Shown one piece after another: positions 1 through 64,000 of a stretch of DNA of 64,000 nt. The DNA comes from an uncultured Solibacteraceae bacterium. Lineage in GTDB: Bacteria > Acidobacteriota > Terriglobia > Bryobacterales > Bryobacteraceae. The notes under the pieces were generated by a model, which was not told where the DNA came from, searched no databases, and saw only the letters and a list, made by a program, of their open reading frames with translations. The stretch lies in assembly GCA_964430625.1 (NCBI GenBank), contig CAYSFR010000003.1, positions 329,266-393,265 on the forward strand, written 5' to 3'. Every line of letters begins with the position of its first letter. Positions within the stretch are counted from its first letter, which is position 1. The translations under genes and the position numbers were made by a program.

Positions 1-1
1 G

Positions 2-892: not shown

Positions 893-904
893 AATGAGAC
901 CTGA

Positions 905-2083: not shown

Positions 2084-2120
2084 GGTACAGCGATTTCCCA
2101 ATGGAAGAACAACTCTATAG

Positions 2121-4507: not shown

Positions 4508-4622
4508 TCCCGCTCGTTAAAATGCGCGTCAAGTTGCGCCGCGCCAAAGCAGAGAAATTATAGATAACTCCCCTACAGTAATCAGGGCAACACAAGGTGA
4601 AGGAGATGGCATTCTCCTGAGA

Positions 4623-6077: not shown

Positions 6078-6080
6078 ACA

Positions 6081-7466: not shown

Positions 7467-7545
7467 AGGAGGCGACTCGACTAACCGACTGCAATTCCGC
7501 AGAGTTCGATATTGCGTTATGGTTTGAGTTGGGTGTGGACAGCAG

Positions 7546-10069: not shown

Positions 10070-10214
10070 TTAGGCCAAACATATGAAGGCGGTTTGTATC
10101 CTACCGTGCTGACGGCCGTGTGGCTTGATGAGTATGGGCCCGGTAACGGTGGTCGGGGTGGAAGGGACCGATACATATTTCTTAACAGTTATAGTGAGGT
10201 AAGCTAATAGCGCC

Positions 10215-12065: not shown

Positions 12066-12069
12066 TTAA

Positions 12070-13140: not shown

Positions 13141-13673
13141 AAATTGGTCGGTTAATTCATCGTGTGCGATACTATGGACTAAGAGTGGTTGTCGATTGCG
13201 TGGGGCGAATTAATCATCGTTTGTACATGCGGCTTAATTCGTGGTTGTTGAAGTCTTCCGGACTTCGGTTGAAGGGAACACCTCGCTATATTGCTTCGAG
13301 TGTGTACTTCGATGATATGGACAGGATTAATCTAGGCGATAACATAGTGATATCGTCACATGTGCGGTTTCTCACGCATGATTACTCGGCGACAACGGCG
13401 CTGCGAGCTATTGGCAGAGCGCCGGACTCGGATATCGCACTTCAACGGGGGATCACTGTCGGTGACAATGTGTTCATAGGTTTGGCCTCAATTATCATGC
13501 CGAATACAGTTATCGGTGATGACGTTATTGTTGGAGCTGGAGCGGTGGTCCGAGGAAATGTTCCAGCGAGGAGTGTGGTGATCGGAAATCCGGCGTCTGT
13601 TGTGATGTCGATAGAGGAGTTCGCCGCTAGGGCAGAGGCGGTGATCGCGTCCGGGCGTTTCAGGAAGGACTAG
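13137..13673 (+). CDS. Hexapeptide-repeat (left-handed beta-helix) O-acetyltransferase
   Basis: 178 aa. Hexapeptide repeats: ITVGDNVFIGLASIIMPNTVIGDDVIVGAGAVVRGNVPARSVVIGNPA. A GTGA start/stop overlap with the upstream GT suggests translational coupling. Confidence 0.8.
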   Translation: MKIGRLIHRVRYYGLRVVVDCVGRINHRLYMRLNSWLLKSSGLRLKGTPRYIASSVYFDDMDRINLGDNIVISSHVRFLTHDYSATTALRAIGRAPDSDIALQRGITVGDNVFIGLASIIMPNTVIGDDVIVGAGAVVRGNVPARSVVIGNPASVVMSIEEFAARAEAVIASGRFRKD

Positions 13674-13796
13674 TGGCTTGGCGGTTCGGAGAATAGCCGA
13701 GAATGTAGTTCAACGGTCGGTTGGTGTATTGCGACCTCAAATGTGAAACTTGGACAATACTGACCTGGGGAAGACCAATTTCGGAGGGGTTAGGCA

Positions 13797-15731: not shown

Positions 15732-15827
15732 GAATGGGTATTCGTGTGTCGGGCGCTCGTGAGAGCCGTGGCCGGATTACTGCTAATCAAGTTAGAAGTC
15801 GAAAGCGCTTGAAGAGGTGGGAGCTCG

Positions 15828-17855
15828 TTGTTACAAATCATACAAAGTATTAGTAGTGGGTTAACGGAGAGGGTGGATGTTCCGCGGCCGGCTGCAGGGC
15901 CATGCAGCTATTTGGTTAAGTCGAACTGTACGCTGATCTCCAGCGGTACCGAGCGGATGCTGCTCGAGTTTGGGAAGGCGGGATGGGTAGAAAAGGCCCG
16001 CAAACAGCCGGACAAGGTGCGGATGGTGCTGGACAAGGTAGGGACGGACGGGTTGTTGCCGACGATTGAGTCGGTACGGGCCAAGCTGGATCAACCGATC
16101 CCGCTGGGATATTGCCATGTGGGTGTGGTGGTGGAGGGCGAGGGGCTGGCACCGGGGACGCGGGTGGCGTCGAATGGGGCTCACGCGGAGCTGGTTCGCG
16201 TAGCGAAGAACCTGACGGCGGTTATCCCGGACGGGGTGACCGACGCAGCGGCGAGCTTTACGGTGCTGGGCGCTATTGCGCTGCAGGGGATCCGGCTGCT
16301 GGCGCCGAGCCTGGGCGAGACGATGGTGGTGATGGGGTTGGGTCTGATTGGTCAGCTGGCGGTGCAGATTCTGAAGGCGAACGGGTGCCGGGTGGTGGGG
16401 CTGGACCTTGATCCGAGCCGGGTGGCGATGGCAAAACAGTGGGGGGCGGAGGACTGGGACGGCGCGACGGAAGTGGATGGGGTGCTGATCTGCGCGGCGA
16501 CGCAATCGAGCGAGCCGATGAGCCAAGCGGCGAAGATGTGCCGGAAGCGGGGTCGAATTGTACTGGTGGGAGTGACGGGACTGGAACTGAGCCGGGACGA
16601 TTTTTATAAGAAAGAGCTGAGTTTCCAGGTGTCGTGCTCTTACGGGCCGGGGCGTTATGACCCGGTGTATGAGGACCGCGGGGTGGATTACCCGAAGCCT
16701 TACGTGCGGTGGACGGCCCAGCGGAACTTTGAGGCGGTGCTGCAGTTGATGGCGGAGGGGCGGCTGATTACGGAGCCGCTGATTACGCACCGGTTCCCGT
16801 TTGAGCGGGCGCTGGAGGCATACGAGATGATCACGAACGGGACGCCGCACCTGGGGGTGCTGCTGGAGTACCCGAACGCGCCGAAGATGGAGGCGACGAT
16901 CCAGGTGGCGGCGCGGCAACCGGGGCGGGCCGGGGCGCCAGTGGTGGCGTTCCTGGGGGCGGGGAACTATGCGACACGGGTGCTGATGCCGGCGGTGAAG
17001 AAGGCGCAGGGGCGGTTGCGGACGGTGTGTGCGTCGGGAGGGACGAGTGCGGCGCTGGCGGCGCGGCAGTTCGGGTTTGAGCAGGCGAGCTGTGACCGGG
17101 CGGCGGTGCTGGGGGATGGGGAGACGAATGCGGTGTTCATCGCGACGCGGCATGACAGCCACGCGAAGCTGGCGCTGGATGCGCTGGCGGCAGGGCAACA
17201 TGTGTTTGTTGAGAAGCCGCTGGCATTGCGGGCGGAGGACCTGGATGCGCTGGCGGAGCGGCTGTGCGAGAAGCCGGGGCTGCATTTGATGGTGGGGTTC
17301 AACCGGCGTTTTTCGCCGCTGGTGCAGGAGATGGTGACGCATTTGCGGCGGGCGGGCGGGAAGAAGGCGATTGTGATTACGGTGAATGCGGGGGCGATAC
17401 CGAAGGAGCACTGGACGCAGGACGCGGAGCTGGGCGGGGGACGGATTGCGGGGGAGGCGTGCCACTTTCTGGACCTGGCGCGGTATCTGGCGGGGGCGGC
17501 GATTCAGGACGTGCAGGTGGTGAAGGCGGAGGAGGATACGGCGAGCCTGCAGGTGGGGTTCGCGGACGGGTCGTTTGCGACGATTCTGTATCTGGCGAAC
17601 GGAAGCAAGAAGTTTCCGAAGGAGCGGGTGGAGGTGTTCTGGGCGGGGCGGGTGCTGCAGCTGGACAATTTCCGGGTGTTGCAGGGGTATGGGGTGCCGG
17701 GGTTCGGGAAGAAGAGTTTGTGGAAGCAGGACAAGGGGCAGGAGGAGTGCGTGCGGCGGTTCCTGGAGAGTGTGGAAAAGGGGACGGCGGCGCCGATCCC
17801 GGTGGAGGAGATCTTTGAAGTGAGCCGGTGGGTGCTGAAGGCGGCGGCGGGGTAG
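15828..17855 (+). CDS. Bi-domain oxidoreductase: MDR/zinc-alcohol-dehydrogenase-like N-domain plus Gfo/Idh/MocA C-domain
   Basis: 675 aa. Motifs: SSGTERMLLEFGKAGW, GLGLIGQLAVQILKANGCRVVGLD, then VAFLGAGNYATRVLMPAV and FVEKPLAL (the EKP motif of the Gfo/Idh/MocA family). TTG start. Confidence 0.8.
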   Translation: MLQIIQSISSGLTERVDVPRPAAGPCSYLVKSNCTLISSGTERMLLEFGKAGWVEKARKQPDKVRMVLDKVGTDGLLPTIESVRAKLDQPIPLGYCHVGVVVEGEGLAPGTRVASNGAHAELVRVAKNLTAVIPDGVTDAAASFTVLGAIALQGIRLLAPSLGETMVVMGLGLIGQLAVQILKANGCRVVGLDLDPSRVAMAKQWGAEDWDGATEVDGVLICAATQSSEPMSQAAKMCRKRGRIVLVGVTGLELSRDDFYKKELSFQVSCSYGPGRYDPVYEDRGVDYPKPYVRWTAQRNFEAVLQLMAEGRLITEPLITHRFPFERALEAYEMITNGTPHLGVLLEYPNAPKMEATIQVAARQPGRAGAPVVAFLGAGNYATRVLMPAVKKAQGRLRTVCASGGTSAALAARQFGFEQASCDRAAVLGDGETNAVFIATRHDSHAKLALDALAAGQHVFVEKPLALRAEDLDALAERLCEKPGLHLMVGFNRRFSPLVQEMVTHLRRAGGKKAIVITVNAGAIPKEHWTQDAELGGGRIAGEACHFLDLARYLAGAAIQDVQVVKAEEDTASLQVGFADGSFATILYLANGSKKFPKERVEVFWAGRVLQLDNFRVLQGYGVPGFGKKSLWKQDKGQEECVRRFLESVEKGTAAPIPVEEIFEVSRWVLKAAAG

Positions 17856-33984: not shown

Positions 33985-36519
33985 ATGAGAATGGCTCAAA
34001 GCGGGAACGTGGCAGCGCAGCAGGCCGAGGTTGCCGGCAAGGAACCGATCTGGAACCAAGAGGAGTTGCGGCGACTCATCGAGTGCACCGGCGATGCCAG
34101 TTTTGTTCTGGAGGCGAGCGGAAGGGCAATTTCTGTCCATTGGGGAACATTGGGATACGGAAGGCTCCCGGCGGATGGGCTTGCTGAGAACGACTATCGC
34201 CGTCATATCGTCCATCCGGATGATCTGGAGGCTCACCGGGAAACGATGGCGCGATGCCTGGCAGCGGGTGCCGCTTTTGCCCTCGAAGAACGCATGCGCG
34301 ACCGGGATGGGAAGTACCGGTGGTTTTTGATCCGCTACCGGCCCTTTCCGGACGAACAAGGGGCTCCGCATCGATGGTATGTCAGTGCGGTCGATATCGA
34401 CGGGCGAAGGCAGACCGAAGCGCTGCGGAGCGCGGAAAAGCAGGCGCTGGAGATGGTGGCGGATGGATCGACGCTGGAAGCGGTGCTGGATCATCTTTGC
34501 GGGGCGATTGATGCGCAGATTGCACCGTCGGTGGCAACGATCCTTTTGATGGATGCCGATGGGAAGAAGTTGTGGCCGACGGCCGGTCCGCTGGTCCGGC
34601 CCGAGTGGCGCCGCGCAATTTCCCCCTTGCCGGTGAGCGAGGAGGTGGGGCTGTGCGGGACGGCGGCATACCGAAAGGAGCGGGTGGTGGTGGCGAACAT
34701 CGCCACCGAGCCGACGTTCCGGGAAGAGTATCGCCAAGCGGCGCTGCGGAACGGGATTCTGGCGGCGTGGTCCGAGCCGATCCTGACGAAGGCGGGCGAT
34801 GTATTGGGGACGTTCGCGATCTACTCAAGCGATTCGCGTGTGCCGGGCGCATCCGACCTGGCGTTGATTGAAGACGCCGGACGCATTGCGCGAATCGCGA
34901 TTGAACGGCAGCGGGCTCACGCCGCGCTGGCGATGGCGCAAAGCGAACTGGAATCGGAACGGGACCGTCTACGCCTCCTGCTGGAGGTTCAAGGTTCGCT
35001 GGTTTCGAATCTGGATTTGCGAGGGTTGCTGATGGGATTGGCGGGGGGGCTGCGCAGGGTTACCGAGTGCGATTTCATCGGGCTCTCGGTTCCCGGCGAA
35101 TCGGAGAAGTTCCTTCGTCAGCACTTTGCTCACTACTTCGGGGATCCAGGGAACATCCGGGAGGGGATGGCTGTGCCGATCCATGGATCGGCATCGGGGA
35201 AGGCGTTTCGGACAAGGGCGCTGGTGTGCCTGGACGACCCCGACGCCAACCGGCCTGACCCGGCGATCTACGGCAGCCCCGAGGGGGCCGAGTTCTACCG
35301 GTTTCTGCTGAGCGAGGGTGTGCCCGCGGGCTATTTTCTTCCGCTCTGCCGCGGGGAGACCGTGATTGGGGTGCTGCAATTGACGAAGTACGCCGGAAAG
35401 GCCCTGAAACCGCAGGCGGCGCAGTTCCTTACGGGGCTGGCGAGCCAGCTCTCGACGGCGGTCTCCAATGCGCTGGAGCATGAGTCGGTGGTGGCTTCCC
35501 GGGAGCAGTTGGCACGGGAACAGGTCTATCTGCGAGAGGAGATCGTCCGATCGTCGATGTTCGAGGAGATCGTCGGCTCCTCGCAGGCGCTGCGGCGAAT
35601 TCTCGATCAAGTATCGCGGGTAGCACCCACCGACTCTACGGTACTCATTCAAGGGGAGACGGGAACCGGGAAGGAGTTACTGGCGCGAGCGATCCATAGC
35701 CGGTCGCGGCGGGCGAGCCGTCCTTTTGTGCGGATGAATTGCGCGGCCATACCGCCGGCGCTGATCGCCTCCGAGCTGTTCGGGCACGAAAAGGGCGCCT
35801 TTACCGGGGCGCTGCAGCGGCGGGTTGGCCGGTTCGAGTCCGCCGATGGCGGGACGATATTTCTTGACGAGGTCGGCGAGATTCCGCAGGAAACGCAGAT
35901 TGCCTTGCTGCGGGTGCTTCAGGAACGGGAGTTTGAGCGGGTAGGGGGATGCCAGACGATCCGGGTCGATGTGCGTGTGCTGGCGGCGACGAATCGAGAC
36001 CTGCAGCGCGCGGTGGAGGCAGGGCAGTTCCGGCGGGATCTTTTTTACCGGCTGAATGTGTTTCCCCTGGCTGTGCCGCCGCTCCGTGACCGGGGCGACG
36101 ACATTCCCTTGTTGGTGGAGTATCTGGTTGACCGGTATGCGAAACAGATGGGGAAGCAGATTGGAAGCATCAGCCGTCGGACCTTAGAGGCGTTCCAAGG
36201 CTATGACTGGCCCGGCAATATCCGGGAGTTGCAGAACGTGATTGAGCGGGCGGTGATCCTGTGCGACGGACCGACGTTTTCGGTGGATCCGACGTGGTTG
36301 GGGGCCGGGCGGAAGCCGGGGACACCGGGAGGCGAACGGACCGATCCGTTTGACGAGCAGGAGCGTTTGCTGATCGAAACGGCACTCCGGGAGGCGGATG
36401 GCAGGATTTCCGGGCCGGCGGGCGCCGCCACCAAGCTTGGTATTCCGAGGCAGACGCTGGAATCGAAGATGAAAAAGCTCGGCATCGACCGGTATCCATT
36501 CAAGCGACCTGTGCTGTAG
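33985..36519 (+). CDS. Sigma-54-dependent transcriptional activator (bEBP): PAS - GAF - GAF - AAA+ - Fis-type HTH, no receiver domain
   Basis: 844 aa. Walker A VLIQGETGTGKELLARAIH. GAFTGA loop (EKGAFTGA). GGTIFLDEVGEIP. C-terminal AATKLGIPRQTLESKMKKLGI. Confidence 0.9.
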   Translation: MRMAQSGNVAAQQAEVAGKEPIWNQEELRRLIECTGDASFVLEASGRAISVHWGTLGYGRLPADGLAENDYRRHIVHPDDLEAHRETMARCLAAGAAFALEERMRDRDGKYRWFLIRYRPFPDEQGAPHRWYVSAVDIDGRRQTEALRSAEKQALEMVADGSTLEAVLDHLCGAIDAQIAPSVATILLMDADGKKLWPTAGPLVRPEWRRAISPLPVSEEVGLCGTAAYRKERVVVANIATEPTFREEYRQAALRNGILAAWSEPILTKAGDVLGTFAIYSSDSRVPGASDLALIEDAGRIARIAIERQRAHAALAMAQSELESERDRLRLLLEVQGSLVSNLDLRGLLMGLAGGLRRVTECDFIGLSVPGESEKFLRQHFAHYFGDPGNIREGMAVPIHGSASGKAFRTRALVCLDDPDANRPDPAIYGSPEGAEFYRFLLSEGVPAGYFLPLCRGETVIGVLQLTKYAGKALKPQAAQFLTGLASQLSTAVSNALEHESVVASREQLAREQVYLREEIVRSSMFEEIVGSSQALRRILDQVSRVAPTDSTVLIQGETGTGKELLARAIHSRSRRASRPFVRMNCAAIPPALIASELFGHEKGAFTGALQRRVGRFESADGGTIFLDEVGEIPQETQIALLRVLQEREFERVGGCQTIRVDVRVLAATNRDLQRAVEAGQFRRDLFYRLNVFPLAVPPLRDRGDDIPLLVEYLVDRYAKQMGKQIGSISRRTLEAFQGYDWPGNIRELQNVIERAVILCDGPTFSVDPTWLGAGRKPGTPGGERTDPFDEQERLLIETALREADGRISGPAGAATKLGIPRQTLESKMKKLGIDRYPFKRPVL

Positions 36520-54000: not shown

Positions 54001-55377
54001 CTAGAACTGCTTGGCCTTGGAGACGGCGCGGAAAACGTCGAGCCGGCCGGAGCCGAGATTTCCACTCGCCGGAGCCGCCTCCGAGAGCGCCGCGTCTGCC
54101 CATTCCCAGCCCAGGTTCGGTTTTGCCTGGAGCATCAATGCGACGGTGCCAGACACCAAGGGCGCACTGAAGGAGGTCCCCCAGGCCGCGGCGTAACGCC
54201 CGCCCGGATAGGGGGCGATAAGACCCTCGCCGGGGGCGGCAATCCGCACCAGATTGTCGCCGTGATTGGAGAAGAGACTGCGCTGGTCGAGAAGATTGGT
54301 CGAGCCAACTCCGATGGCTTCCTGGTAACCGGCCGGGAACATCATCACCTGCTGACCCGCGTTGCCCGCCGAGGCGACGCAGGTGACGCCGCGTGCGCTC
54401 ACCTCGGCGATCGCACGCTCTAACTCCGGGGAAGAAGCGGCAAACCCGAGGCTGAGATTGATCACCCTGGCTCCATGATCGGCTGCGTAGTAGATGGCGC
54501 GGACTACATTGAACCTGGTGGCTTTCCCATCAGCTCCGAATGGTTTGAGTGGCATGATCTTCGCGGTGGGGGCGACAAGGCGGATGAGGCCGGCCACCAT
54601 CGTTCCGTGGCCGAAACCGAGGGGAAGACGGGCCGGATCCAACAGGCTGACTGCGCCTTGATCGAGAATGGCTGTTGTAAACGGATTGATATCGAAAGCT
54701 GTGTCGAGAATGGCGGTGGTGAACGGATTGATCACCGCCCGAGTGGCCGGATCGAGGTCTTCGAGTTCCGACGGGAAGCCGGCGCGTTCGCGGATAAAAT
54801 CGTAGCCGGGAACGAGCCAGCGGGACAGGACCGGGTGTTTGGGGTCGATTCCGGTGTCGATGACGGCGACGATTCCGGCGCCGGTGGCCAGCCGTGCGTG
54901 GGTTTGGGGGACGCGAACATGAGCCAGCGCGGGTTGGCGGACAAAACTGGACCAGACGGTGTCGCCGAAGAATGAGGTGGTGGTCCGGTCGGTGAGCGCG
55001 TCCCAAGCCGGTTTTGCGCTTCCGATCAGCCGGTCGGTATTGTGGCCCGGCAGTTCGATGAGGGCATTGATTTCGATGAGGACGTCATCGTCATCGTCGT
55101 CGTCGGTGTCATGGTCGTTGTGGTCGTAGTTCCTGACGGCCGCCATAATTCGATCGGCCGGCACTCCTTCAGGGCCGCGAACCAGGAACAGGTCCTGGCC
55201 GGGAACCTGCTGCAACAGGGCCAATCCAAAGAAGCGGCTGATCTCCTCGGCGTATGGCTTCGGGGCGCGCATCAGGAACTGATCCGCGGTGGCGGCCGGC
55301 ATGGCCACCCCGACCAGGAAAAGGATCAAGATCTTTTCAATTTGCATCGTGGCTACACTCCAAACGTTTCGTTCCAT
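54001..55377 (-). CDS. Secreted S8 (subtilisin-family) serine peptidase
   Basis: Catalytic triad motifs VAVIDTGID, GHGTMVAG and GTSFSAPLVSG. Signal MQIEKILILFLVGVAMPAATA, with an alternative ATG at 55347. It has a poly-Asp tract and an internal 14-residue duplication. Confidence 0.85.
   Translation of the reverse strand: MERNVWSVATMQIEKILILFLVGVAMPAATADQFLMRAPKPYAEEISRFFGLALLQQVPGQDLFLVRGPEGVPADRIMAAVRNYDHNDHDTDDDDDDDVLIEINALIELPGHNTDRLIGSAKPAWDALTDRTTTSFFGDTVWSSFVRQPALAHVRVPQTHARLATGAGIVAVIDTGIDPKHPVLSRWLVPGYDFIRERAGFPSELEDLDPATRAVINPFTTAILDTAFDINPFTTAILDQGAVSLLDPARLPLGFGHGTMVAGLIRLVAPTAKIMPLKPFGADGKATRFNVVRAIYYAADHGARVINLSLGFAASSPELERAIAEVSARGVTCVASAGNAGQQVMMFPAGYQEAIGVGSTNLLDQRSLFSNHGDNLVRIAAPGEGLIAPYPGGRYAAAWGTSFSAPLVSGTVALMLQAKPNLGWEWADAALSEAAPASGNLGSGRLDVFRAVSKAKQF
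54662..54732 (-). repeat. In-frame 42-nt-period tandem duplication inside the S8 peptidase gene
   Basis: 29-nt units at 54662-54690 and 54704-54732 differ at 3 positions. All three differences are synonymous on the coding strand (TTT/TTC, ACA/ACC twice). Both units encode INPFTTAILD. Confidence 0.8.
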
Positions 55378-55385
55378 CGGCGAGG

Positions 55386-56042
55386 CTAACCGAGGCCGGG
55401 GCCTTCGCGGTCGAGCGGCGGTCCGAGCGGCTTGATTTCCGGGATGGGGATAAGCAATTGCATTCTGGTTTCCGGATCCAGGATGCTGAGATGGGCGTTT
55501 TCGGCAGGCTTGCCTTTCAGGACGAACTCCCCGAACTCGTTCGTGGTGCTGTTGGACACGACGCGTTGGCCGGCCATCAGTTTGACGGTCAATCCCTGTC
55601 TCCCCTCTTCGACATCGTGGTGAACCTGACCGGCAAGGACGATACCGGTGCTTTTGGGCGCAAACTCAATCGAGAGTTCCACTCGGATGTCTGCTGAACG
55701 GAAGCTAAGTTGGCGGGCGGCACCATGGGCGCTGCGGACGCCGGGCAGGCCTGGTTCCGCCCAGCTATCGAAAATCTGGCGGGCTACGGCGAGGAGATTT
55801 CCAACTGACGCCGGTTCCGGGGCGGAATAAGGGAAGACCGAATAAGCACGAAAAAGCACGTGGCGCGGTACAGGAAAGCTGGATGCCTGGCGCACGGTAC
55901 CAGCGACTTTTTCCAGGCGGCGGACGAGGCCGCCACAGTCCGCGCAGCCGTCATCGAGGTGAGCCTGCAGCGTCCGCCGGCCAGGCTCGTCGCCCAAGCC
56001 GCGGATGAAATCGACCCATTCCTGGATGCTGAAGTGTTCCAT
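55386..56042 (-). CDS. Soluble anti-sigma-factor-like protein: zf-HC2-like N-terminus plus carboxypeptidase-regulatory-like beta-sandwich
   Basis: MEHFSIQEWVDFIRG...AHLDDGCADCGGLVRRL has H-x4-C-x2-C, whereas the canonical zf-HC2 is H-x3-C-x2-C. No TM helix is seen. The C-terminus VLAGQVHH...GLTVKLMAGQRVVSNSTTNEFGEFVL is CarboxypepD_reg-like. The ATG at 56042 leaves a 13-nt gap after the CHAT gene. Confidence 0.5.
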   Translation of the reverse strand: MEHFSIQEWVDFIRGLGDEPGRRTLQAHLDDGCADCGGLVRRLEKVAGTVRQASSFPVPRHVLFRAYSVFPYSAPEPASVGNLLAVARQIFDSWAEPGLPGVRSAHGAARQLSFRSADIRVELSIEFAPKSTGIVLAGQVHHDVEEGRQGLTVKLMAGQRVVSNSTTNEFGEFVLKGKPAENAHLSILDPETRMQLLIPIPEIKPLGPPLDREGPGLG

Positions 56043-56055
56043 AGTCCCGTTTCCG

Positions 56056-58833
56056 TTAAGTAGAGAGAGCGGTCTGGTCGCTGGTTTGATATACCTGCGC
56101 CATCTTTTTTTCACGGACTGGTGCGCCGGTCAGAATAAATGGGGCCCAGTAGTAAGGATGCGGATAGCGGCTGCGCAATTCAATCATTGCGGATTGGAGG
56201 GCGACAGCCGGGTCGGCCCCGGCACGGACGGCCGAATAGAACGCCTGCATGTAAGCGGTGGTGCTTTCGTCGTTGATGGCCCACAAGGTTACTTGGGCGG
56301 AACGTGCGCCGGCGAGCAGGACTCCACGGGTGAGCCCAAGGATTTCGTCGGCGCCGGCGGACTCCTGGACTCCGGTGGCACAGCCGCTGAGGGTGATGAG
56401 TTCGGTGTCGAGCGTAAGGTCGCGCAAATCGAAGAGACAGAGTCGTCCATCGCCGAGACGGAGGGAAGAAAAAGCCGGGTTGTCGGCGCGGAAAACACCG
56501 TGCGAAGCGATGTGAATGAAGCGGCTGCCGCGGCAGCGGCGCAAATGTTCCAGAGAAGCATCCCGACCGAGAAAGAGCTCAGCTCCCGGCAAGGCCCGGG
56601 CGACGGATTCGGCTTCGAGCGCGATGGAGGGACAGCGCGGGTCGGGCACGGCGAACACGGAATAGCGTTCGACGGACGAATTGAAGGACTTGGCCAGGCA
56701 GGCGAGCCATACGCTGGCACTAGGCGCGTAGGAGACGGTACGTTGGTCAATCAGGTAGCGCCCTTGGGACAAAAGGGCATGGAACGGAATCCGATGGAGG
56801 TCCTCATGGGGCGCGATGGTCCAGTGTCCGGCTGGGAGCAGGGGCTCGGCGGGGGCGATGAGGAGGCGGTAGATGCGTTCCAGATGGCTACGGGTCGCCG
56901 GGAGCCAGGTACGCTCGGCGGAGTTGGCCCAGGGAAGGGCGCCGCGGGAGAGTTGGAACCGTAGGAGGTGCCAGACATCCTGAAGTTCGGAGGCGCGGCC
57001 GAGGGGGAAGGACTCGATTTTGTTTCGGGTTGCGACGAACAGCAACAGGGTGTCGCGGATACGGAAATACTGGAGAAAGGCTTCGCCGGGGCCGAGGGCA
57101 GCCTGCGTTTGCGCGAGGGCCGAGGCGGCGACGTCGATGGGGTCGGCGACGCGAGCGGGGGCGCCGGCACGAGCTAGGGAGAGTGCCTGTTCGCACTCCA
57201 GGGCCTGGCGGCGCAGGCGGTCTAAGGAGGAGGCCAAGAGTGGCTCAGGTCTGGATTCGAGCGTATCCAAGCGCCGGTAAAGGCGGCGCAGTTGCAAGTG
57301 GAGTTCCTTTGTTTGGCCCGGTTCGGTGGCGATGAGCCCGTCCGGGCGAGTGAGAGAATCGGCGAGACTCCTTGACTTGCCGTACTCGACAAAGCGGAAC
57401 GCGCCGGCAAAATCGGCCCGCTCGACGAGGATAGCGACGAGGCCTTCGTAGATGGCCCGTTTGTCCTGAAGAAAAGAGAGTTGAAGTTCGTCGCGCACCA
57501 GGCGCTGCCGGAGGCTGTCGGCGAGGGTGTGAGCGCGTTGGAAGGAGTCAAAGGCAGCCTGGGAATCGCCCAGAGCGGCGGCGGATTCGGCGATTATCAT
57601 CTCCGCGCTCAGTTGGAGATGCGGAGCGCTGGCCGAGCCGAGTCCGGCATTGGCTTGGTGTGCCAAGGCACGGGCTGCCTGTGGTTCGCCCTGGCGGAGG
57701 TGGAGGCGGGCGCAGACGATCAGCGCCAGGAGTGCCTTACCGGTGAAGGCGGAGGCGCCGAGTTCGACGCGGGCTCGGGTGGCGAGGGCAACCGCGGCTT
57801 TGCTTCTGCCCGCCCCTTCCATGGCGAGGGCCCGGGACAGGTCTGTGATGGCGACCCAGACTTTGTTCTGGTCCCGCAGGAAGAGCTTGCGTACTCTCCC
57901 GAAGGCCTTCAGGCTGATTCCAACGTTTCCGAGGTGGAGGTGCGCGATTCCGAGATTGAGCAGAGAACGGGCCTTCTCGCTGCGCATGCGCAGCCGGGCG
58001 AAACCATCCATGGCTTCGGCTGCCAGATGGGCCGCTTCTTGAAAGAGATTAAGTTCCAGAAAGAGGTCGGACTGGTCGAGGAGGGAGATAGCCGCCTTGT
58101 GTGGGTTTTCGGCCTTCCGGGATGTTGAGACGCGGTAGAGGTGGATGGCGCGGGTGTAGTTGCCCTCGAGGAAATTCAGGTAAGCGACATTGATGTCGAC
58201 CTCGTTTTCAAGAACGGGCAGGTTGAGGCGGGAGAAGATTTCGCGTGCCTGCTGAAAGCAACTCAGGGCGCGATCGAGTTGCATGGTGCCGATCATGGCG
58301 ACGGCCATGTTTCGGAGAGCGATGGCGGCGGAGGATTCGTCGCCCTGCTCCCGGAGTGCCGTTAGCGCCCTGGTATAGGCATCCACGGCCTCGGCGTGGC
58401 GATCCTGGCGGTGCAGGATGTTGCCGATGTTGGCGTCGAGCCGAGCCAGTCGCAAAAGGTCGGTCTGTTGTTCAAACGTTCGGCGGGCTGTGGCGGCCCA
58501 GTCCAGCGCCTCCTCGTAGCGTCCCAAATAGATGAGGCTTTGCACGGCGCTGCTTCGCGTTCGGGCCGCTGTGGAGTGGTCGCCGAGATCCTCGAGAATC
58601 CGAATGGCCCGTTCATAGGTACGGCAGGCGCGGCGATAACGGGCGCTGGAGTACTCGAAATGGGCTTTCATCCGCAGCGCCTCGGCGATGGCGAGGCCAT
58701 CATTGATTTCCCGGGCCATCTGGTAGGCGCGGACGGCCAGCCGGGTTCCGGCGACGAGGTCCTTGCCGAGTTCGCGTTGCGCTAGGCCGCAGAGCCGAAA
58801 CACCTCCTCCTTGGAAGGGGCGGCCGGGTTCAT
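56056..58833 (-). CDS. TPR-repeat plus CHAT-domain (caspase-fold) protease
   Basis: 925 aa from the ATG at 58833. The N-terminal ~450 aa are TPR-like helical repeats. The C-terminal CHAT domain has a His-Cys dyad context: FIHIASHGVF... and LITLSGCATG. Confidence 0.85.
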   Translation of the reverse strand: MNPAAPSKEEVFRLCGLAQRELGKDLVAGTRLAVRAYQMAREINDGLAIAEALRMKAHFEYSSARYRRACRTYERAIRILEDLGDHSTAARTRSSAVQSLIYLGRYEEALDWAATARRTFEQQTDLLRLARLDANIGNILHRQDRHAEAVDAYTRALTALREQGDESSAAIALRNMAVAMIGTMQLDRALSCFQQAREIFSRLNLPVLENEVDINVAYLNFLEGNYTRAIHLYRVSTSRKAENPHKAAISLLDQSDLFLELNLFQEAAHLAAEAMDGFARLRMRSEKARSLLNLGIAHLHLGNVGISLKAFGRVRKLFLRDQNKVWVAITDLSRALAMEGAGRSKAAVALATRARVELGASAFTGKALLALIVCARLHLRQGEPQAARALAHQANAGLGSASAPHLQLSAEMIIAESAAALGDSQAAFDSFQRAHTLADSLRQRLVRDELQLSFLQDKRAIYEGLVAILVERADFAGAFRFVEYGKSRSLADSLTRPDGLIATEPGQTKELHLQLRRLYRRLDTLESRPEPLLASSLDRLRRQALECEQALSLARAGAPARVADPIDVAASALAQTQAALGPGEAFLQYFRIRDTLLLFVATRNKIESFPLGRASELQDVWHLLRFQLSRGALPWANSAERTWLPATRSHLERIYRLLIAPAEPLLPAGHWTIAPHEDLHRIPFHALLSQGRYLIDQRTVSYAPSASVWLACLAKSFNSSVERYSVFAVPDPRCPSIALEAESVARALPGAELFLGRDASLEHLRRCRGSRFIHIASHGVFRADNPAFSSLRLGDGRLCLFDLRDLTLDTELITLSGCATGVQESAGADEILGLTRGVLLAGARSAQVTLWAINDESTTAYMQAFYSAVRAGADPAVALQSAMIELRSRYPHPYYWAPFILTGAPVREKKMAQVYQTSDQTALST

Positions 58834-59423
58834 ATTCCCGCCGCCTTCAGCAACTGCTCCAGTTGCCGCAGGCAGCGTCCGCGGATGAATCCGATCGAAC
58901 CGACCGCCAGGCCGAGTGCTTTCGCCACCTCCTGATAGGCGCGCGGCGGGTCTTCGTAGAACAGCATCTCCACCATCTCCCGGCAACGGGCCGGGATCCG
59001 GTAGAGGAGTTCGCGGATGAGCTGTTGCTGCTCCGACTCTGCGAGCCAGTCAGGGGCCGAGCCCGATGGGTCCGCGATGTCCGGCAATTCGTCCCGGTCC
59101 ATTTGGGAGAGACCCTTCTTCCTGCGGTAGCTCTCATTGGCAGCAACGCGGGCCAGCCAACCTCGAATCGCCCCGGCATCGCGCAGCGTCTCGAGGTGCT
59201 GGTAGAGAAGAATGCAGACATCCTGGAAGACATCTTCGGCATCTTCCTGGTTTAGCCGGTAGCGAAGGGGAACGGAAAAGATGAGGCCTTTGTACTTATC
59301 GATGAGCGCATTCCAGCCTGCGGGCTGTCCGGCCAGGCAGGCGGCGATGAGTTCGTGATCCTCCCAGCCAGGGTGGGGCGTTGAGGAAGGCAGCAGTTTA
59401 TTCTTGAGGACGGTCAGAGGCAC
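58830..59423 (-). CDS. ECF-type RNA polymerase sigma-70 family factor
   Basis: 197 aa. Region 2: DAEDVFQDVCILLYQHL...WLARVAANESYRRKK. Region 4: YQEVAKALGLAVGSIGFIRGRCLRQL. Its TGA overlaps the ATG of the CHAT gene (ATGA at 58830-58833). Confidence 0.85.
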   Translation of the reverse strand: MPLTVLKNKLLPSSTPHPGWEDHELIAACLAGQPAGWNALIDKYKGLIFSVPLRYRLNQEDAEDVFQDVCILLYQHLETLRDAGAIRGWLARVAANESYRRKKGLSQMDRDELPDIADPSGSAPDWLAESEQQQLIRELLYRIPARCREMVEMLFYEDPPRAYQEVAKALGLAVGSIGFIRGRCLRQLEQLLKAAGI

Positions 59424-61125
59424 GGGTATCTTTTCCAGTCCAATACAGTGAATCAGCGTTGCTGAGGGCGGGGTGTCCGCCCGCGGTGCGTACGATGCCT
59501 GCCAGTCCGCGGGGAGCAGCCAGAAGAATGTTCGGGCTTGCGAGGGTGATGAAAGGCAACTGGCCGGCGAGAATCTGCTGGACCTGACGGAAGAGGACCA
59601 CGCGCCTCTCCGTATCGGTCGCCTTCAGTTGGCGTTGGAGCAAATCGTCGACTTCGCGCTCCCAGGGCAGAGCGGGACCTCCCAGGTTCCATAGATGCGC
59701 TTTTCCGGACGAAAGGAGTACATTTATATCGGCGGCGGGGTCGGCCTCTCCCGGGCGGAGGGCCATGACCGCGAGGTCGTAGTCTCTTTTGGATGTCACC
59801 CGATCGATCAGGCTTCGAAATTCTAACGCTACCGTCCTGGCGCCGATTCCAAGAGCCTGCAGATCCTGCTGAATGATGGCCGCGGTCTGGGTGTAGGCGG
59901 AGTTGCTGGAACTGGCGGCGATGGTGAACTCGACCTTCGCACCGGACGGATCGATCAAGTGTCCGGCCCCATCCCAGCGAAAGCCCGCGTTGCGCAGGAG
60001 GAGGCGGGCGGCGTCCGGGGAGCGGGAAGGACGGGGGAGGGAAGGGTGAAACCAGGCGGCTCTGGCCGGCGTGACATGGCCCCAGAGGGAGGTGGCATGC
60101 CCCCGGTAGACGAGGCGAACGATGGCCTCGCGGTCCACGGCGAGGGAAATGGCCTGGCGGAACGAGGGATCGGAAAACCATGCCATCCGCTGTTTCAATG
60201 GGGGCTGGACCCGGACGCCTTGATTGAGGTTGAAAAGGAGAAAGGTATAGTCGAGGCTCGGACCAAGATCCTGGGGGGCCAGGTGCGCGGCGCTTCCTGA
60301 CCTCTTCAACGCGTCAAAGGATCCACTGCCCAACCCGGCCAGCAGATCGATCTCCCGCGCCAGCAGCCTGGCCAGCAGGGATTCCTCTGAGGGTGCGAAG
60401 ACGAACTCCACCTCATTGAGGTAGGGCAGTTGGCGCCCAGATTTGTCGCGCCGCCAGTAGTGGGGATTGCGTGCCAGAACGAGCCGTTGGCCCGGTTCGC
60501 CGCGAGAGATCCGAAAAGGTCCGGCACCGGTAAGTTCAGCGGCGGGAGTGTTGTTGCCCCAAACCTGGCGGAGCTTTCCCTGGCGGAAATGCTCTTCCAG
60601 ACGATGGCGGGGCAGGATGGGGATCGCCTCCAGCATCCGTTCGCCCAAGGCGGTGGGGAACGGCAGGTCGACGGCGATCGATCGAGCGTCGACTTTTCGC
60701 AGGCGGACGGTCTTGCTATTCAGGACGAGGACATCCCGCTGCGGGGCGGCGGTCTTCTCGTCCTGAAAGACATCGAAGGAAAAGACGACGTCCTCGACGG
60801 TGAGCGGAGCGCCGTCGGAGAATCGCAGGTCCGGCTTGAGGCGGACCAAAATCTGGCGCGCGTCCCGGGAGAGCTTCCAGGACTCGGCCAATGCCGGCTC
60901 GACGCGTCGGGAGACAGGGTCCGTCCGGATCAGGGTCGAATGGAGCAGGCTGTTGATGATCCGCGTGGGCTCGTCGATTTCCAGAACGGGATTGAAAGAG
61001 CGGGGTTCGCCCCGCTGACCGACGACAAGTCTCCCGCCGCGCAAATCCTGCGCCCCGGCCAGGTTCGCCAGCAGCATCGCCGCGGCCAGGGCCAGGAGGC
61101 CCACCGGCGCGTTACCCATTTTCAA
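59398..61125 (-). CDS. ABC transporter substrate-binding protein, family 5 (peptide/nickel/opine type)
   Basis: 575 aa with a signal peptide. Motif: LVVGQRGEPRSFNPVLEIDEPTRIINSLLHSTLIRTD. Confidence 0.85.
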   Translation of the reverse strand: MKMGNAPVGLLALAAAMLLANLAGAQDLRGGRLVVGQRGEPRSFNPVLEIDEPTRIINSLLHSTLIRTDPVSRRVEPALAESWKLSRDARQILVRLKPDLRFSDGAPLTVEDVVFSFDVFQDEKTAAPQRDVLVLNSKTVRLRKVDARSIAVDLPFPTALGERMLEAIPILPRHRLEEHFRQGKLRQVWGNNTPAAELTGAGPFRISRGEPGQRLVLARNPHYWRRDKSGRQLPYLNEVEFVFAPSEESLLARLLAREIDLLAGLGSGSFDALKRSGSAAHLAPQDLGPSLDYTFLLFNLNQGVRVQPPLKQRMAWFSDPSFRQAISLAVDREAIVRLVYRGHATSLWGHVTPARAAWFHPSLPRPSRSPDAARLLLRNAGFRWDGAGHLIDPSGAKVEFTIAASSSNSAYTQTAAIIQQDLQALGIGARTVALEFRSLIDRVTSKRDYDLAVMALRPGEADPAADINVLLSSGKAHLWNLGGPALPWEREVDDLLQRQLKATDTERRVVLFRQVQQILAGQLPFITLASPNILLAAPRGLAGIVRTAGGHPALSNADSLYWTGKDTRASDRPQE

Positions 61126-62065
61126 TTTCTCCCTCCCGATCGGTTGCCGAGGACAACAGCGTGCGGTAGCAAAGCGAGACCGCGGCGAGGGCGACGGCCG
61201 GGGCAGCGAGCCAGGGTGCGCGTGTCAGGGCGTCGAACCGGGCATAGGCCGCGAGCATGGTTCCCCAGCTTGCCGCCGGTTCGCCCAACCCCAACCCCAG
61301 GAAGGAAAGAGTGACCTCTGCCATCACAAACTGGGGAATCGCAAGACAGAGGAACTCGGCGACCGTGGGCCACACCGGCGGCAGAATGTGGCGGGTGAGG
61401 ATGTAGGCGTGTCCGGCGCCAAATCCGCGCGCGGCCGCAACGTAGTGTCGTTCTCTCAGGCTCAGCACCATTCCCCTCACGAGTTTCGCAGGCCGAGGCC
61501 AGCCGGCAAGAGCCAGTACTCCCAGAAGTCCGGCCAGTACGGCAGGTGGACTGGCGTCCAGCGGAAGCAAGGCTCTGGCACCGAGCAGCAGATAGAGCCA
61601 CGGTAACGAGAGAAATATGTCCGCGGAATACATGACTAACCCGTCTTTCCATCCAGAGAAGTACCCGGCGAGCAATCCGAGTGCCATTCCCAGGAATGCG
61701 GCCAATGCGGCGGCAATTACACCGGAAAACAGGGAGATTCGGGCTCCATGGAGCAGACGGGACCATTGATCGCGTCCGAGTGAATCCGTTCCTAGCAGGA
61801 AAATCTTACCCGGATCATCGACGGTAAAAAGGTGAAGGCCGCCGTTATCGCGGTGGAACCATCGCAGGGGAAATTCGGTGACTCCGTTTCCAGTCTCGAT
61901 GGTGGCTAGCGGGATCAATCCGTGGAATACGATCCGTGTGGGAGGGGAGAAGGCGTGTTCTCTGTGCTGGGTTGCCGGCCCGTACGGTCCGAGGAATTCC
62001 GCCAGCGCCGCCGCGGTGTGAACCAGAAGGAGGAGCCAGAGGGATAGCTTTGCTCCGCCCGTCAT
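61112..62065 (-). CDS. ABC transporter permease (DppC/OppC-like)
   Basis: 317 aa, polytopic. The region LGTDSLGRDQWSRLLHGARISL is typical of the family. Confidence 0.85.
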   Translation of the reverse strand: MTGGAKLSLWLLLLVHTAAALAEFLGPYGPATQHREHAFSPPTRIVFHGLIPLATIETGNGVTEFPLRWFHRDNGGLHLFTVDDPGKIFLLGTDSLGRDQWSRLLHGARISLFSGVIAAALAAFLGMALGLLAGYFSGWKDGLVMYSADIFLSLPWLYLLLGARALLPLDASPPAVLAGLLGVLALAGWPRPAKLVRGMVLSLRERHYVAAARGFGAGHAYILTRHILPPVWPTVAEFLCLAIPQFVMAEVTLSFLGLGLGEPAASWGTMLAAYARFDALTRAPWLAAPAVALAAVSLCYRTLLSSATDREGEIENG

Positions 62066-62970
62066 TGACAGTCCTTCCGGATCCGCGGGTCAGCGACGGC
62101 TAGCAGCAGGCCGACAGCAAGATTCGACCCGGCAAGCAGGCAGGCGGAGAGCACGACGCCAGCCAGGACAACGTGGTGGTCCCGGGCGGCGACGGACTCC
62201 AGCAGCAGGGGGCCGAGTCCCGGCCATCCCAGAACGACTTCGACAATGAGCGAAGCGCTGAGAAGCGAAGAGACCGAAAGGCCGAACAGGCTGATTAGCG
62301 GATTGGCGGCGGCGGGGAGAATATGCCCCACCCAAACGCGAAGGGGCGACAATCCGTGCGCGCGAGCACTCTCCACGAATGGTTCCCCCATCACCTGGCG
62401 GACGCTGGCAAAGGTGTGCCGATAGATCGCTGGAAACGAGATGAGCGCCAAGGTGAGGCCTGCCCCGGGCAGGCTTCCGCTCACGGCGATCCACTTCGTG
62501 TTGACGGCGGCGACCAGCATGAACAGGGCCAGGAGCAGGTCTGGAATCGCGACCAGAACTGAGACTACCAGGGCGCCCGCTCGACTGCCCCAGGACCCGG
62601 ACCGGGCGGCCGCCCAGGCGGCCAGCGGGACGCCGAGCAACCAAGCCCCCAATAGCCCGGTAAACGACAGCAGCGCCGTGTTCCGTACTCGGGGCCAGAG
62701 GAGTTCGGCCACCGGCCGGTTCCAGGTCAAAGACAGGCCAAAATCGCCCAGGAGGAGCGATCGGAGCCAGTGGAGCAGTCGATATGCCGGCGGCTGGTTC
62801 AAAGCGAATTCGTGCTGCAGTCGTTCGACCGTCGCAGCGGGGATAGAGGGGTTGGACTTCAAGTCGGTGAGGAAGTCTCCGGGGGCCGCCTCCAGCATCA
62901 AGAACGCCGCCACCGCGACGATGGTGACCATAGCGACGGCTTGCAGGACACGTACGGCGACGAACCTCAT
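62062..62970 (-). CDS. ABC transporter permease (DppB/OppB-like)
   Basis: 302 aa. Motifs: MRFVAVRVLQAVAMVTIV and FVESARAHGLSPLRVWVGHILP, an EAA-type loop. Confidence 0.85.
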   Translation of the reverse strand: MRFVAVRVLQAVAMVTIVAVAAFLMLEAAPGDFLTDLKSNPSIPAATVERLQHEFALNQPPAYRLLHWLRSLLLGDFGLSLTWNRPVAELLWPRVRNTALLSFTGLLGAWLLGVPLAAWAAARSGSWGSRAGALVVSVLVAIPDLLLALFMLVAAVNTKWIAVSGSLPGAGLTLALISFPAIYRHTFASVRQVMGEPFVESARAHGLSPLRVWVGHILPAAANPLISLFGLSVSSLLSASLIVEVVLGWPGLGPLLLESVAARDHHVVLAGVVLSACLLAGSNLAVGLLLAVADPRIRKDCQ

Positions 62971-63740
62971 TCCTCTGCCTCAATCAGCGCGCGGCTGGCC
63001 GGGTGGCGCGGAGATGTGAAGAAGTCTTTACAAGGTGCTGCTTCCACGACAGTGCCGCCAGACATCACTGCCATGCGCTGGGCAAGCCGGTGCACGCAGG
63101 AAAGGTCGTGGGTGATGGAGAGCATCGAAAATCGCCGGGATTGTTGGACGGTCAACAACAACTCGACGATACTCTCCCGGCTTTCCGGATCGAGGCCGCG
63201 CAGCGGTTCATCGAGAATCAGGAGCTCCAGGCCGTCGACGGAAAGAGCGCGGGCGATCGCTACGCGTTGTCTTTGACCACCGCTCAACTGATGGGGACGG
63301 AGGCGGAGGCAGTGTTCGGGCAGGCCCACGGAGAGCGCCATGGCAATGGCGTCCGCTTCCCGGCCGGAGCGCAGCGCGGGGCGGCGAAAGCGAAGGGGCT
63401 CTCCAATCAGTTCGCTGACGGTCCATCGCGGGTTTAGTGCGAGCGGGGAATCCTGGCGGACCATTTGGACGGATGGGTTGGGCCCCCCTTTTCCCGGCCA
63501 CAGCAGGTGTTCGTTCTTCCAGATCGTCCCGCTGGTCGGTTCCAGGAGGCCGGCAAGGCAAAGCGCCAGAGTCGTTTTCCCGGAGCCTGTCCGGCCGGCC
63601 AGAGCGGTGCGCGAGGCTGGCGGCAATGCGAGCGTGGCATCTCGCAGGGCCGGGGTGGCGGGCGCGGGCCGGTAACACTTTGCCAAATTCGCGACGCGAA
63701 AAGAAGGCGCGTTCACTGAGGCTCCAGGCGGCCTTCGCAA
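62967..63740 (-). CDS. ABC transporter ATP-binding protein (DppF/OppF-like)
   Basis: Walker A GRTGSGKTT, signature LSGGQRQRVAIARAL, Walker B LLILDEP. Confidence 0.85.
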   Translation of the reverse strand: MRRPPGASVNAPSFRVANLAKCYRPAPATPALRDATLALPPASRTALAGRTGSGKTTLALCLAGLLEPTSGTIWKNEHLLWPGKGGPNPSVQMVRQDSPLALNPRWTVSELIGEPLRFRRPALRSGREADAIAMALSVGLPEHCLRLRPHQLSGGQRQRVAIARALSVDGLELLILDEPLRGLDPESRESIVELLLTVQQSRRFSMLSITHDLSCVHRLAQRMAVMSGGTVVEAAPCKDFFTSPRHPASRALIEAEE

Positions 63741-64000
63741 AGGGCGAAAGCGCGGGAAGTGACACGCGCCAGGGCGCGCCGATTGTGGCTGATGAACAGG
63801 AGGGACAATCCGTGGCGGTCGCGGAGGTTGCGGAAGAGATCGAGTACTTCCCGCTGACCAATCGAATCGAGCGACGCGGCCGGTTCATCGGCGATCAAGA
63901 GGTCTGGACGGCAACAAACGGCGCGGGCCACGGCGGCCCGCTGTCGTTCTCCTCCGCTTAGTTGGTGGGGGAACGCCCCGGCAATGCGTTCCGGATCGTC
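63713..64000 (-). CDS. ABC transporter ATP-binding protein (DppD/OppD-like). The 5' end lies beyond the window.
   Basis: The frame is open up to nt 64000. It translates ...HQLSGGERQRAAVARAVCCRPDLLIADEPAASLD. Confidence 0.8.
   Translation of the reverse strand, partial: DDPERIAGAFPHQLSGGERQRAAVARAVCCRPDLLIADEPAASLDSIGQREVLDLFRNLRDRHGLSLLFISHNRRALARVTSRAFALCEGRLEPQ

Follow-up and report, generated by a model that had tools for sequence, protein, structure and literature searches.

A conserved acidobacterial cassette joining an ECF sigma factor, a TPR-CHAT protease, a ZAS-like anti-sigma candidate and an S8 peptidase to a peptide-type importer: a possible protease-governed sigma switch

CHAT proteases are widespread, yet substrates or triggers are known for few of them, and their links to sigma factors have so far been confined to CRISPR type III-E and one myxobacterial defence regulator. 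In craspase, the TPR-CHAT protein Csx29 cleaves Csx30, by which the inhibition of CASP-sigma is relieved (PMC10028731). The DdvS-DdvA operon runs from the sigma gene through a TPR-CHAT anti-sigma and an unknown protein to a peptidase; DdvA is one transmembrane polypeptide consisting of a cytoplasmic zinc-associated anti-sigma (ZAS) domain, a transmembrane helix and a periplasmic TPR-CHAT part, release of DdvS has been proposed to proceed via autoproteolysis and RseP, and DdvA-like anti-sigmas were reported from Myxococcota and one Comamonas only (PMC11506125). RRNPP systems rely on peptides that are taken up through Opp and then bound by TPR receptors in the cytoplasm (PMC10569065, PMC3601965). 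Here we describe a gene cassette in a 64,000-nucleotide stretch (the window) of contig CAYSFR010000003.1 from an uncultured Solibacteraceae bacterium, in which the genes of a sigma factor with extracytoplasmic function (ECF), a cytoplasmic TPR-CHAT protein, a soluble 218-aa protein and an exported S8 peptidase are joined to those of an ATP-binding cassette (ABC) importer. This nine-gene cassette resembles a route, not described so far, by which a signal from outside could be converted into gene expression, and it appears to be fixed in many members of the Acidobacteriota, a soil phylum both abundant and little studied. Full-text literature searches returned no description of the module, CHAT goes unmentioned in the main text of the paper on ECF classification 2.0, and public annotation designates the module proteins merely as 'CHAT domain-containing protein' or 'S8 family peptidase'.

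An earlier sequence-only reading of the locus had recognized a stand-alone block of four co-directional, tightly packed genes. The packing was confirmed to the nucleotide: the TGA of the sigma gene and the ATG of the TPR-CHAT gene overlap as ATGA, a gap of 13 nt leads to the gene of the 218-aa protein, and the S8 gene follows after 8 nt (ATG at 55377) or 38 nt (ATG at 55347), the latter start being preferred by gene callers on identical DNA and resulting in a protein of 448 aa. The block is not a stand-alone one, however, for the genes of an Opp/Nik-type importer lie immediately upstream on the same strand, and the 3' end of the gene of its substrate-binding protein (SBP) overlaps the sigma start by 26 nt. 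On the public contig L010, whose DNA is identical to the window and extends past its end (window x = 66043 - L010 x), the importer genes span 1617-6645; the gene of ATPase 1 (ABC_tran, 1617-2330) is preceded by a divergent gene (349-1431), and the first intergenic region of the operon falls outside the window. A scan of 53.6-64 kb for consensus promoters and terminators gave matches at chance level only.

The arrangement was seen in dozens of species, with protein identities of 23-60%. The small protein had only six word-index homologues, and the five independent contexts of small-protein homologues, reaching down to 29% identity, all displayed a common order of ABC_tran, two BPD_transp_1, SBP_bac_5, sigma, TPR-CHAT, small protein and S8 between unrelated flanking genes. 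For the locus counts, the sigma alignment was scanned against one genome per species and the best 80 genome loci of at least 539 sigma relatives were taken; linkage was scored with hidden Markov models made from the first orthologues, and the denominators are the loci with sufficient flank. Except for one binned as Limnocylindrales, these 80 loci come from Acidobacteriota metagenome-assembled genomes (MAGs), the carriers including Solibacteraceae, Bryobacteraceae, Terriglobales, Thermoanaerobaculia, Ca. Angelobacter and others. CHAT comes after sigma in 62 of 73 loci, the small protein follows in 58 of 66 and S8 in 53 of 62, while the SBP gene stands directly upstream of sigma in 49 of 61; the four linkages occur together in 37 of 49 loci, and ABC genes lie upstream of the SBP gene in most. 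Such an arrangement is far beyond chance, and the sigma-CHAT-small-S8 linkage, which had been drawn from a single locus, proved to be conserved across the Acidobacteriota loci. The genes flanking the module are metabolic or housekeeping ones that differ between species, and the module itself appears to be vertically conserved across the phylum.

Rearranged loci revealed how the cassette is divided. In L073 and L078 (9.8-20.5 kb) the order is sigma-CHAT-small-S8-ABC, in which the ABC genes have come to lie downstream of S8 and are still contiguous with the module. In L089 (10.0-20.6 kb) the sigma-small set is separated by ~3.4 kb from SBP-CHAT. Ca. Angelobacter MAGs carry sigma+small pairs by themselves (L044 ~1114-2663, L056 482-2026 and L069 9749-11299), with no CHAT, S8 or ABC genes nearby; their small proteins retain the His/Cys motif and Arg103, and the MAG of the L056 pair is also that of the full module L039. 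These linkage variants therefore indicate two linked sub-modules, one of sigma and small protein and the other of importer, CHAT and S8. An extra secreted protein of 143 aa and unknown family is encoded between CHAT and the small protein in L093 (8433-8864) and L088 (~13580-14012), in the sub-lineage with degenerate S8 repeats; it was considered as a separate peptide precursor and rejected, as it contains no repeat units.

The profile searches agreed with the domains that had been assigned from sequence alone to the sigma factor, the TPR-CHAT protein and the S8 peptidase. The 197-aa protein belongs to the ECF (group IV) sigma-70 factors: Sigma70_r2 was matched at E=7.9e-12 (45.2 bits vs cut-off 24) and TIGR02937 sigma70-ECF at 68.9 bits (cut-off 42.9, aa 37-191), its PDB matches are ECF sigmas throughout, and the Pfam models of region 4 by themselves stayed below cut-off (14 bits). 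Region 4 contains the sequence GSIGFIRGRCL, which is invariant in the sigma family (window and L001-L091), presumably replaces the usual ECF region 4.2 motif and could serve as a marker of this family.

In the TPR-CHAT protein, the CHAT domain (PF12770) was matched at E=2.5e-53 (181.8 bits vs cut-off 24), and TPR_12 was matched as well. The caspase-type dyad of the TPR-CHAT class is present as His778 in IASHG and Cys818 in LSGCATG, and neither residue varies in any of the 63 orthologues, so that the dyad noticed in the single sequence holds for the family. Kyte-Doolittle hydropathy scans, by which membrane and signal segments were judged, revealed no signal peptide and no membrane segment. The AlphaFold2 model (pLDDT 87.9, pTM 0.84), based on an alignment of 71 sequences, predicts a TPR superhelix joined to the CHAT domain in a fold like that of known TPR-CHAT members. 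Foldseek searches of the PDB with this model retrieved Csx29 (8eey_B, E=2.2e-15), DdvA (8rot_A, E=2.8e-15) and then separases, the top matches having E values of 1e-15 to 1e-12, ~14% identity and TM-scores of just 0.3-0.45. The kinship to Csx29 that had been put forward is thus one of fold, shared equally by DdvA, and it is not borne out by the curated Csx29 model NF041237, for which the score was 30.2 bits against a cut-off of 300. The 64 kb had also been described as free of cas genes and CRISPR arrays; no CRISPR-like repeats, Rfam match or PADLOC system were found within the window, in which cas genes were checked by sampling and not exhaustively, and no cas genes lie beside the module among the related loci with gene tables examined. 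Within the TPR array, three Asn residues (175, 215 and 262) do not vary, and three more (135, 138 and 323) hardly do; Asn135, Asn175 and Asn215 recur with a 40-residue period on equivalent TPR helices, a series that we read as a possible ladder binding a peptide backbone.

The 218-aa protein matched no Pfam or NCBIfam family and defines a large family of its own without a Pfam model: a profile search of 1.84 billion representatives at E<=1e-3 returned 4478, of which 546 at E<=1e-30, and the best 150 of these 4478 matches have lengths of 198-271 aa. Conservation read from 149 members revealed H3, H28, C33, C36, R103, G138, G171 and F173 as invariant, and we take H-x24-H-x4-C-x2-C to be the spacing of ChrR-type ZAS domains plus one residue. 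The protein possesses no hydrophobic segment (top 19-residue Kyte-Doolittle score 0.85), and a score of 1.6 is exceeded by only 4 of the 149 members. Its AlphaFold2 model (pLDDT 87.8) places helices at residues 6-13, 19-30, 34-55 and 60-69 and a beta-sandwich from residue 84, the C-terminal domain being CarboxypepD_reg-like; GVRSA sits in a coil (93-109) of lower model confidence. A PDB profile search gave six matches, of which three are ZAS anti-sigma domains aligned on the His/Cys motif, all of them weak (RsiW, E=0.017; RslA, E=0.12; N-terminus of DdvA, E=0.54), and the top match is a transthyretin-like domain over the C-terminal half. Of the sequence-only description as a zf-HC2-like soluble protein, the H-x4-C-x2-C motif and the lack of a transmembrane helix were retained, while the Pfam zf-HC2 match was not obtained; its assignment as a soluble anti-sigma became better founded through the His/Cys quartet, the four-helix model and the sigma+small units, with profile matches that are weak. 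Taken together, the ZAS-like signature, the predicted fold and the sigma+small units make the 218-aa protein the probable cognate soluble anti-sigma.

The exported peptidase matched Peptidase_S8 (PF00082) at E=2.6e-38 (132 bits), and the signal peptide assigned to it earlier corresponds to a signal-like N-terminal segment in the hydropathy scan. No substitution of D164, H247, N329 or S392 occurs in any of the 57 S8 genes, and these residues stand in the subtilisin order of family S8, in which Asn329 would be the oxyanion-hole Asn according to its position in the subtilisin motif. The protein aligns to solved subtilisins apart from an insertion, without counterpart there, between the catalytic Asp and His. 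Every S8 orthologue carries this insertion, with 2-7 copies of one 8-10-aa unit, and exact peptide repeats were found in 54 of 57 locus S8 genes and, among homologues from the database, in 103 of 120. In the window, the unit is INPFTTAILD, in two copies; elsewhere it reads QSTVAILD, QETTPILD, QSTASILD, QSSTSILD, QSTTEVLD and others, the copies being the same within a genome and different between genomes. A further unit copy is located ~55 residues N-terminal of the catalytic Asp in 12 of 54 S8 genes, whereas the unit peptide is absent from the other module proteins. The same module also houses long S8 versions that bear Big domains, and others whose repeats are degenerate. The presumed S8 pro-region of the window also contains a strongly acidic run, HNDHDTDDDDDDD (~55090-55130), which is not obviously conserved in orthologues.

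The codons of the unit copies were compared. The two INPFTTAILD copies in the window differ by four synonymous and no non-synonymous changes, and 1009 identical codons, 836 synonymous and 27 non-synonymous differences were counted between unit copies overall. Identity at the protein level in the face of 836 synonymous vs 27 non-synonymous differences rules out recent duplication or gene conversion. Tandem S8 paralogues, both with the same genome-specific unit, stand downstream of the small protein in L039, L052, L060, L090 and L091. In three Ca. Angelobacter genomes (L060, L091 and L090) the paralogue split predates the species, with ~63% core identity between groups and 73-90% within an orthologous group; QSSTSILD is present in both paralogues of L060 and L091, and QSNTSILD in both of L090. 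From both the codon counts and this concerted change in old paralogues, it seems that selection keeps each copy to a single sequence specific to the genome, as we would expect if every copy must fit one shared binding site. An S8 peptidase with a selection-maintained peptide array suggests the input end of a pathway, which makes a mere output, the role given to it before along with that of a second proteolytic step, unlikely.

The importer consists of an SBP_bac_5 protein with an N-terminal signal-like segment (hydropathy scan), two BPD_transp_1 permeases and two ATPases, and is thereby a member of the PepT (Opp/Dpp/Nik) family. Its substrate class is not assignable, because every equivalog score lay below its cut-off.

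Starting from what was observed directly, namely the gene content, a linkage that withstands rearrangement, the conserved catalytic residues, the ZAS-like signature and the selection on the S8 copies, we propose the following mechanism. The ECF sigma factor would be held by the 218-aa protein via its zinc-binding, ZAS-like N-terminal helical domain, and the remaining genes would provide a peptide route across the envelope. The S8 peptidase would be exported with its 2-7 unit copies beside the active site, and one or more unit peptides would be released from it, a cut after the conserved Ile-Leu being plausible. The SBP_bac_5 protein would bind the peptides, and the ABC transporter of Opp/Nik type dedicated to them would carry out the import; once in the cytoplasm, a peptide would bind the TPR superhelix of the TPR-CHAT protein and turn on the caspase-type His778/Cys818 site. 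CHAT would then cut the anti-sigma, for which the exposed invariant Arg103 loop (GVRS) is a candidate site, and the freed sigma factor would transcribe its regulon, probably including its own operon. Separase and metacaspases cleave after Arg. The steps differ in strength. We incline slightly towards control of the small protein by CHAT through proteolysis. That the cassette is a sigma/anti-sigma switch governed by the CHAT protease, with importer and S8 peptidase coupled to it in function, may hold with a likelihood a little short of even. The S8 repeat peptide is a doubtful, though conceivable, candidate for the imported signal, and we put forward only tentatively an acidobacterial trans-envelope peptide relay that would replace the membrane-spanning anti-sigma, with RRNPP-like logic and craspase-like output. 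Such a relay could provide a diderm phylum with a circuit for quorum sensing or self-recognition that is specific to the pherotype. The proposal offers a testable trigger, the S8 repeat peptide, and a testable substrate, the 218-aa ZAS-like protein with its Arg loop.

Several observations weigh against this proposal. At the anti-sigma, PF13490 (zf-HC2) was not matched at E<=0.1, the motif H-x4-C-x2-C (H28, C33, C36) is one residue longer than H-x3-C-x2-C, the anti-sigma profile matches are singly non-significant, and Foldseek of the whole model gave generic Ig-like beta-sandwich matches only, the short helical domain having driven none. R103 is also kept in the sigma+small units without adjacent CHAT, which makes the R103 test non-discriminating; as a CHAT-specific feature, R103 was rejected for the same reason. 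On the peptide side, SBP_bac_5 proteins also carry nickel and opine-metal complexes, no ABC genes were found within the flank examined of the L052, L065 and L085 modules, the TPR groove may hold the anti-sigma itself instead of a free peptide, and the window's own type offers a single peptide between two putative cuts. The insertion has a near-constant length (82-84 residues in most members), which is no less compatible with a folded or autoinhibitory element than with a peptide cassette, and the whole module is kept with degenerate repeats in L016, L064, L088 and loci of the L093 type. A dyad and k-mer search of 35 regions upstream of the first ABC gene found no ECF-type promoter motif above shuffled controls, so that autoregulation of the operon, which the sequence-only reading had left to a promoter check, is unsupported. 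These points bear on a simpler scheme, in essence that of the sequence-only reading, which the present data bear out in part and extend considerably. In this scheme, TPR reads some intracellular cue, CHAT gates the sigma switch, S8 and importer are outputs of the regulon (for example protein scavenging by an extracellular protease together with peptide uptake) and the S8 repeats serve as a pseudo-substrate, structural or autoinhibitory, without signalling role. The evidence on sigma, CHAT and small protein applies to it in the same way; the constant insertion length, the survival of the module with degenerate repeats and the modules without nearby ABC genes favour it, and the extra unit copy of the 12 S8 genes, which in our own reading lies near the expected propeptide junction, could then be the enzyme's own cleavage or docking motif. 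A structural repeat, however, does not explain protein-identical copies in which ~45% of the codons are synonymously different, nor the concerted change of paralogues, and ABC genes that overlap sigma and stay linked through rearrangements would be unusual for a mere output. Unit divergence, moreover, followed the TPR region (exploratory partial Mantel r=0.30, p=0.002) and the SBP (r=0.17, p=0.002) and not sigma (r about 0, p=0.55), the small protein (r=-0.12, p about 1.0) or the CHAT domain (r=-0.25, p=1.0), a weak argument to which we give little weight because the test is unreliable on phylogenetically structured data with unequal rates. We therefore consider the simpler scheme possible rather than likely.

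A redox or zinc switch, in which the 218-aa protein would be an RsrA/ChrR-type ZAS that frees sigma upon His/Cys oxidation or metal loss, would dispense with TPR-CHAT as its protease and leave the latter as a scaffold perhaps, or as a protease of another protein, for example sigma or a regulon product. The invariant H3/H28/C33/C36 with a ChrR-like spacing, the solubility of the small protein, the sigma+small pairs without adjacent CHAT and the similarity of the transporter to Nik, which permits a link to metal, are consistent with this idea. We consider it quite unlikely all the same: CHAT stands between sigma and small protein in the 62 of 73 loci mentioned, with genes overlapping or nearly abutting, its catalytic dyad is invariant, a pure redox model would leave no role for the invariant loop around Arg103 or for the C-terminal beta-sandwich, which is conserved, and the small-like protein of L089 has lost the His/Cys ligands and kept the loop as GVRG. 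Highly improbable, in our view, is an anti-phage or conflict system analogous to craspase, SAVED-CHAT and DdvA, with CHAT as infection-triggered effector or switch and a sigma factor turning on defence genes. The closeness of the CHAT fold to Csx29 and DdvA, the defence association of the known CHAT-sigma links and a weak similarity of S8 to the IetS/IteS anti-phage subtilases suggested it, whereas the PADLOC, CRISPR-array and Rfam scans of the window were negative, the species-variable flanks hold metabolic and housekeeping genes and no defence islands, the module is apparently vertical across the phylum and fixed beside a nutrient-type importer, and the curated Csx29 score fell far short (30 bits vs 300).

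The coordinates of the cassette are compiled in Table 1. Elsewhere in the window, positions 1-16000 have a G+C content of ~0.52 vs 0.60-0.71 in the remainder, and the plus-strand GC skew amounts to 0.3-0.48 between 12 and 34 kb. Among the products of this region are glycosyltransferases and an asparagine synthase along with a heparinase-like protein and a sulfatase, suggesting an exopolysaccharide island that might have been horizontally acquired. An 844-aa PAS-GAF sigma-54 activator (enhancer-binding protein) is encoded at 33985-36519, between the polysaccharide cluster and TonB-receptor/DUF1552 genes. At 3561-3647, within an open reading frame without Pfam match, 36 nt are directly repeated at a spacing of 51 nt; the repeat is imperfect (75% identity) and probably reflects one at the protein level.

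Table 1. Genes and features of the cassette in the 64,000-nucleotide window
Feature	Position	Strand	Remarks
ABC ATPase 1 (partial)	63713..64000	-	start ~426 nt past window end, per L010
ABC ATPase 2, NikE/OppF-like	62967..63716	-	NCBIfam NikE subfamily 161 bits, under equivalog cut-off
ABC permease 1 (BPD_transp_1; OppB/NikB-like)	62062..62970	-	
ABC permease 2 (BPD_transp_1; OppC/NikC-like)	61112..62065	-	
SBP_bac_5 (Opp/Dpp/Nik) periplasmic substrate-binding protein	59398..61125	-	signal sequence
ECF-type sigma factor	58830..59423	-	197 aa, GTG start
Sigma region 4 signature GSIGFIRGRCL	58869-58901	-	
TPR-CHAT protein, cytoplasmic	56056..58833	-	925 aa
TPR superhelix	57163-58812	-	~aa 8-557
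CHAT domain	56125-57081	-	~aa 585-903
CHAT His778	56500-56502	-	
CHAT Cys818	56380-56382	-	
Soluble ZAS-like anti-sigma candidate	55386..56042	-	218 aa
Small protein, H3 to C36	55935-56036	-	H3, H28, C33 and C36, in the predicted N-terminal four-helix domain
Small protein, GVRSA	55728-55742	-	with Arg103, on coil
Exported S8 (subtilisin-family) peptidase	54001..55347	-	448 aa; alternative start 55377; Asp164, His247, Asn329, Ser392
S8 insertion between catalytic Asp and His	54619..54786	-	
INPFTTAILD, copies inside S8 insertion	54703-54732 and 54661-54690	-	

The individual parts of the cassette resemble known ones to different extents. With the class I ZAS proteins (RsrA, ChrR, RslA and RsiW) the small protein shares, in its model, an N-terminal helical bundle with predicted ligands in helix 1, where helix 2 ends and where helix 3 starts; it differs from them in the motif (H-x4-C-x2-C vs H-x3-C-x2-C) and in the fusion of this bundle to a beta-sandwich, cytoplasmic and CarboxypepD_reg-like, whose Arg loop is invariant. 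Regulation of an anti-sigma by proteolysis is found in CalpL-CalpT-CalpS of type III CRISPR. The proposed release of an ECF sigma factor, by a signal-activated protease that cuts the anti-sigma, resembles that of DegS/RseP-RseA-sigmaE, DegS itself being peptide-activated by the C-termini of outer-membrane proteins. The proteases of the DegS, RseP and CalpL systems are serine, Lon or metallo enzymes, however, and RseA is membrane-anchored, whereas the cassette would employ a cytoplasmic caspase-fold Cys protease on a soluble anti-sigma, and its signal would cross as a transported peptide and not via a membrane-spanning protein.

Phr peptides are matured by extracellular subtilisin-type proteases. 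The cassette, as proposed, would have in common with the RRNPP systems of Firmicutes (Rap, NprR, PlcR and PrgX with Opp) an exported peptide, Opp-type re-import and a TPR receptor encoded adjacently (PMC4147580). It differs from them in its diderm phylum, in a receptor whose proposed output is a caspase-like protease acting on an anti-sigma instead of a helix-turn-helix or phosphatase domain, in a candidate peptide that forms repeats within the protease itself, and in a dedicated importer within its operon. The small propeptide gene of RRNPP systems was not found in the cassette, whose gaps have just 13 and 8-38 nt.

Comparison with DdvS-DdvA revealed the same succession of an ECF sigma factor and a TPR-CHAT with intact His-Cys dyad; DdvA is an equal-best fold match of the window CHAT protein, and its ZAS domain is among the profile matches of the small protein. 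In the cassette, however, the ZAS-like domain and TPR-CHAT are separate soluble proteins without a transmembrane segment, and the CHAT protein begins with TPR helices and has no His/Cys motif, signal peptide or transmembrane helix as DdvA-type proteins do; the peptidase is of family S8 instead of C25, and an ABC importer is added. Craspase is likewise a cytoplasmic TPR-CHAT beside an ECF-type sigma factor and a soluble sigma inhibitor, the inhibitor of the cassette being a candidate one, and the top structural match of the CHAT protein in the window is Csx29. The cassette has no Cas7-11, CRISPR RNA or array, its TPR array is much longer (~550 aa by itself, against ~700 aa of the entire Csx29), its candidate inhibitor is ZAS-like and Csx30 is not among the six PDB profile matches of the latter, its proposed activator is a peptide and not a target RNA, and the unit comprises an ABC importer as well as an S8 peptidase. 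If the switch is true, CHAT-gated sigma release would be a general signalling device outside CRISPR; if the relay is true as well, import-based peptide signalling among diderms at the level of a phylum, a protease whose own gene encodes the signal peptide, and a peptide-activated caspase-like protease, perhaps engineerable as a switch, would all be new. In its composition, the cassette belongs to none of craspase, DdvS-DdvA and RRNPP.

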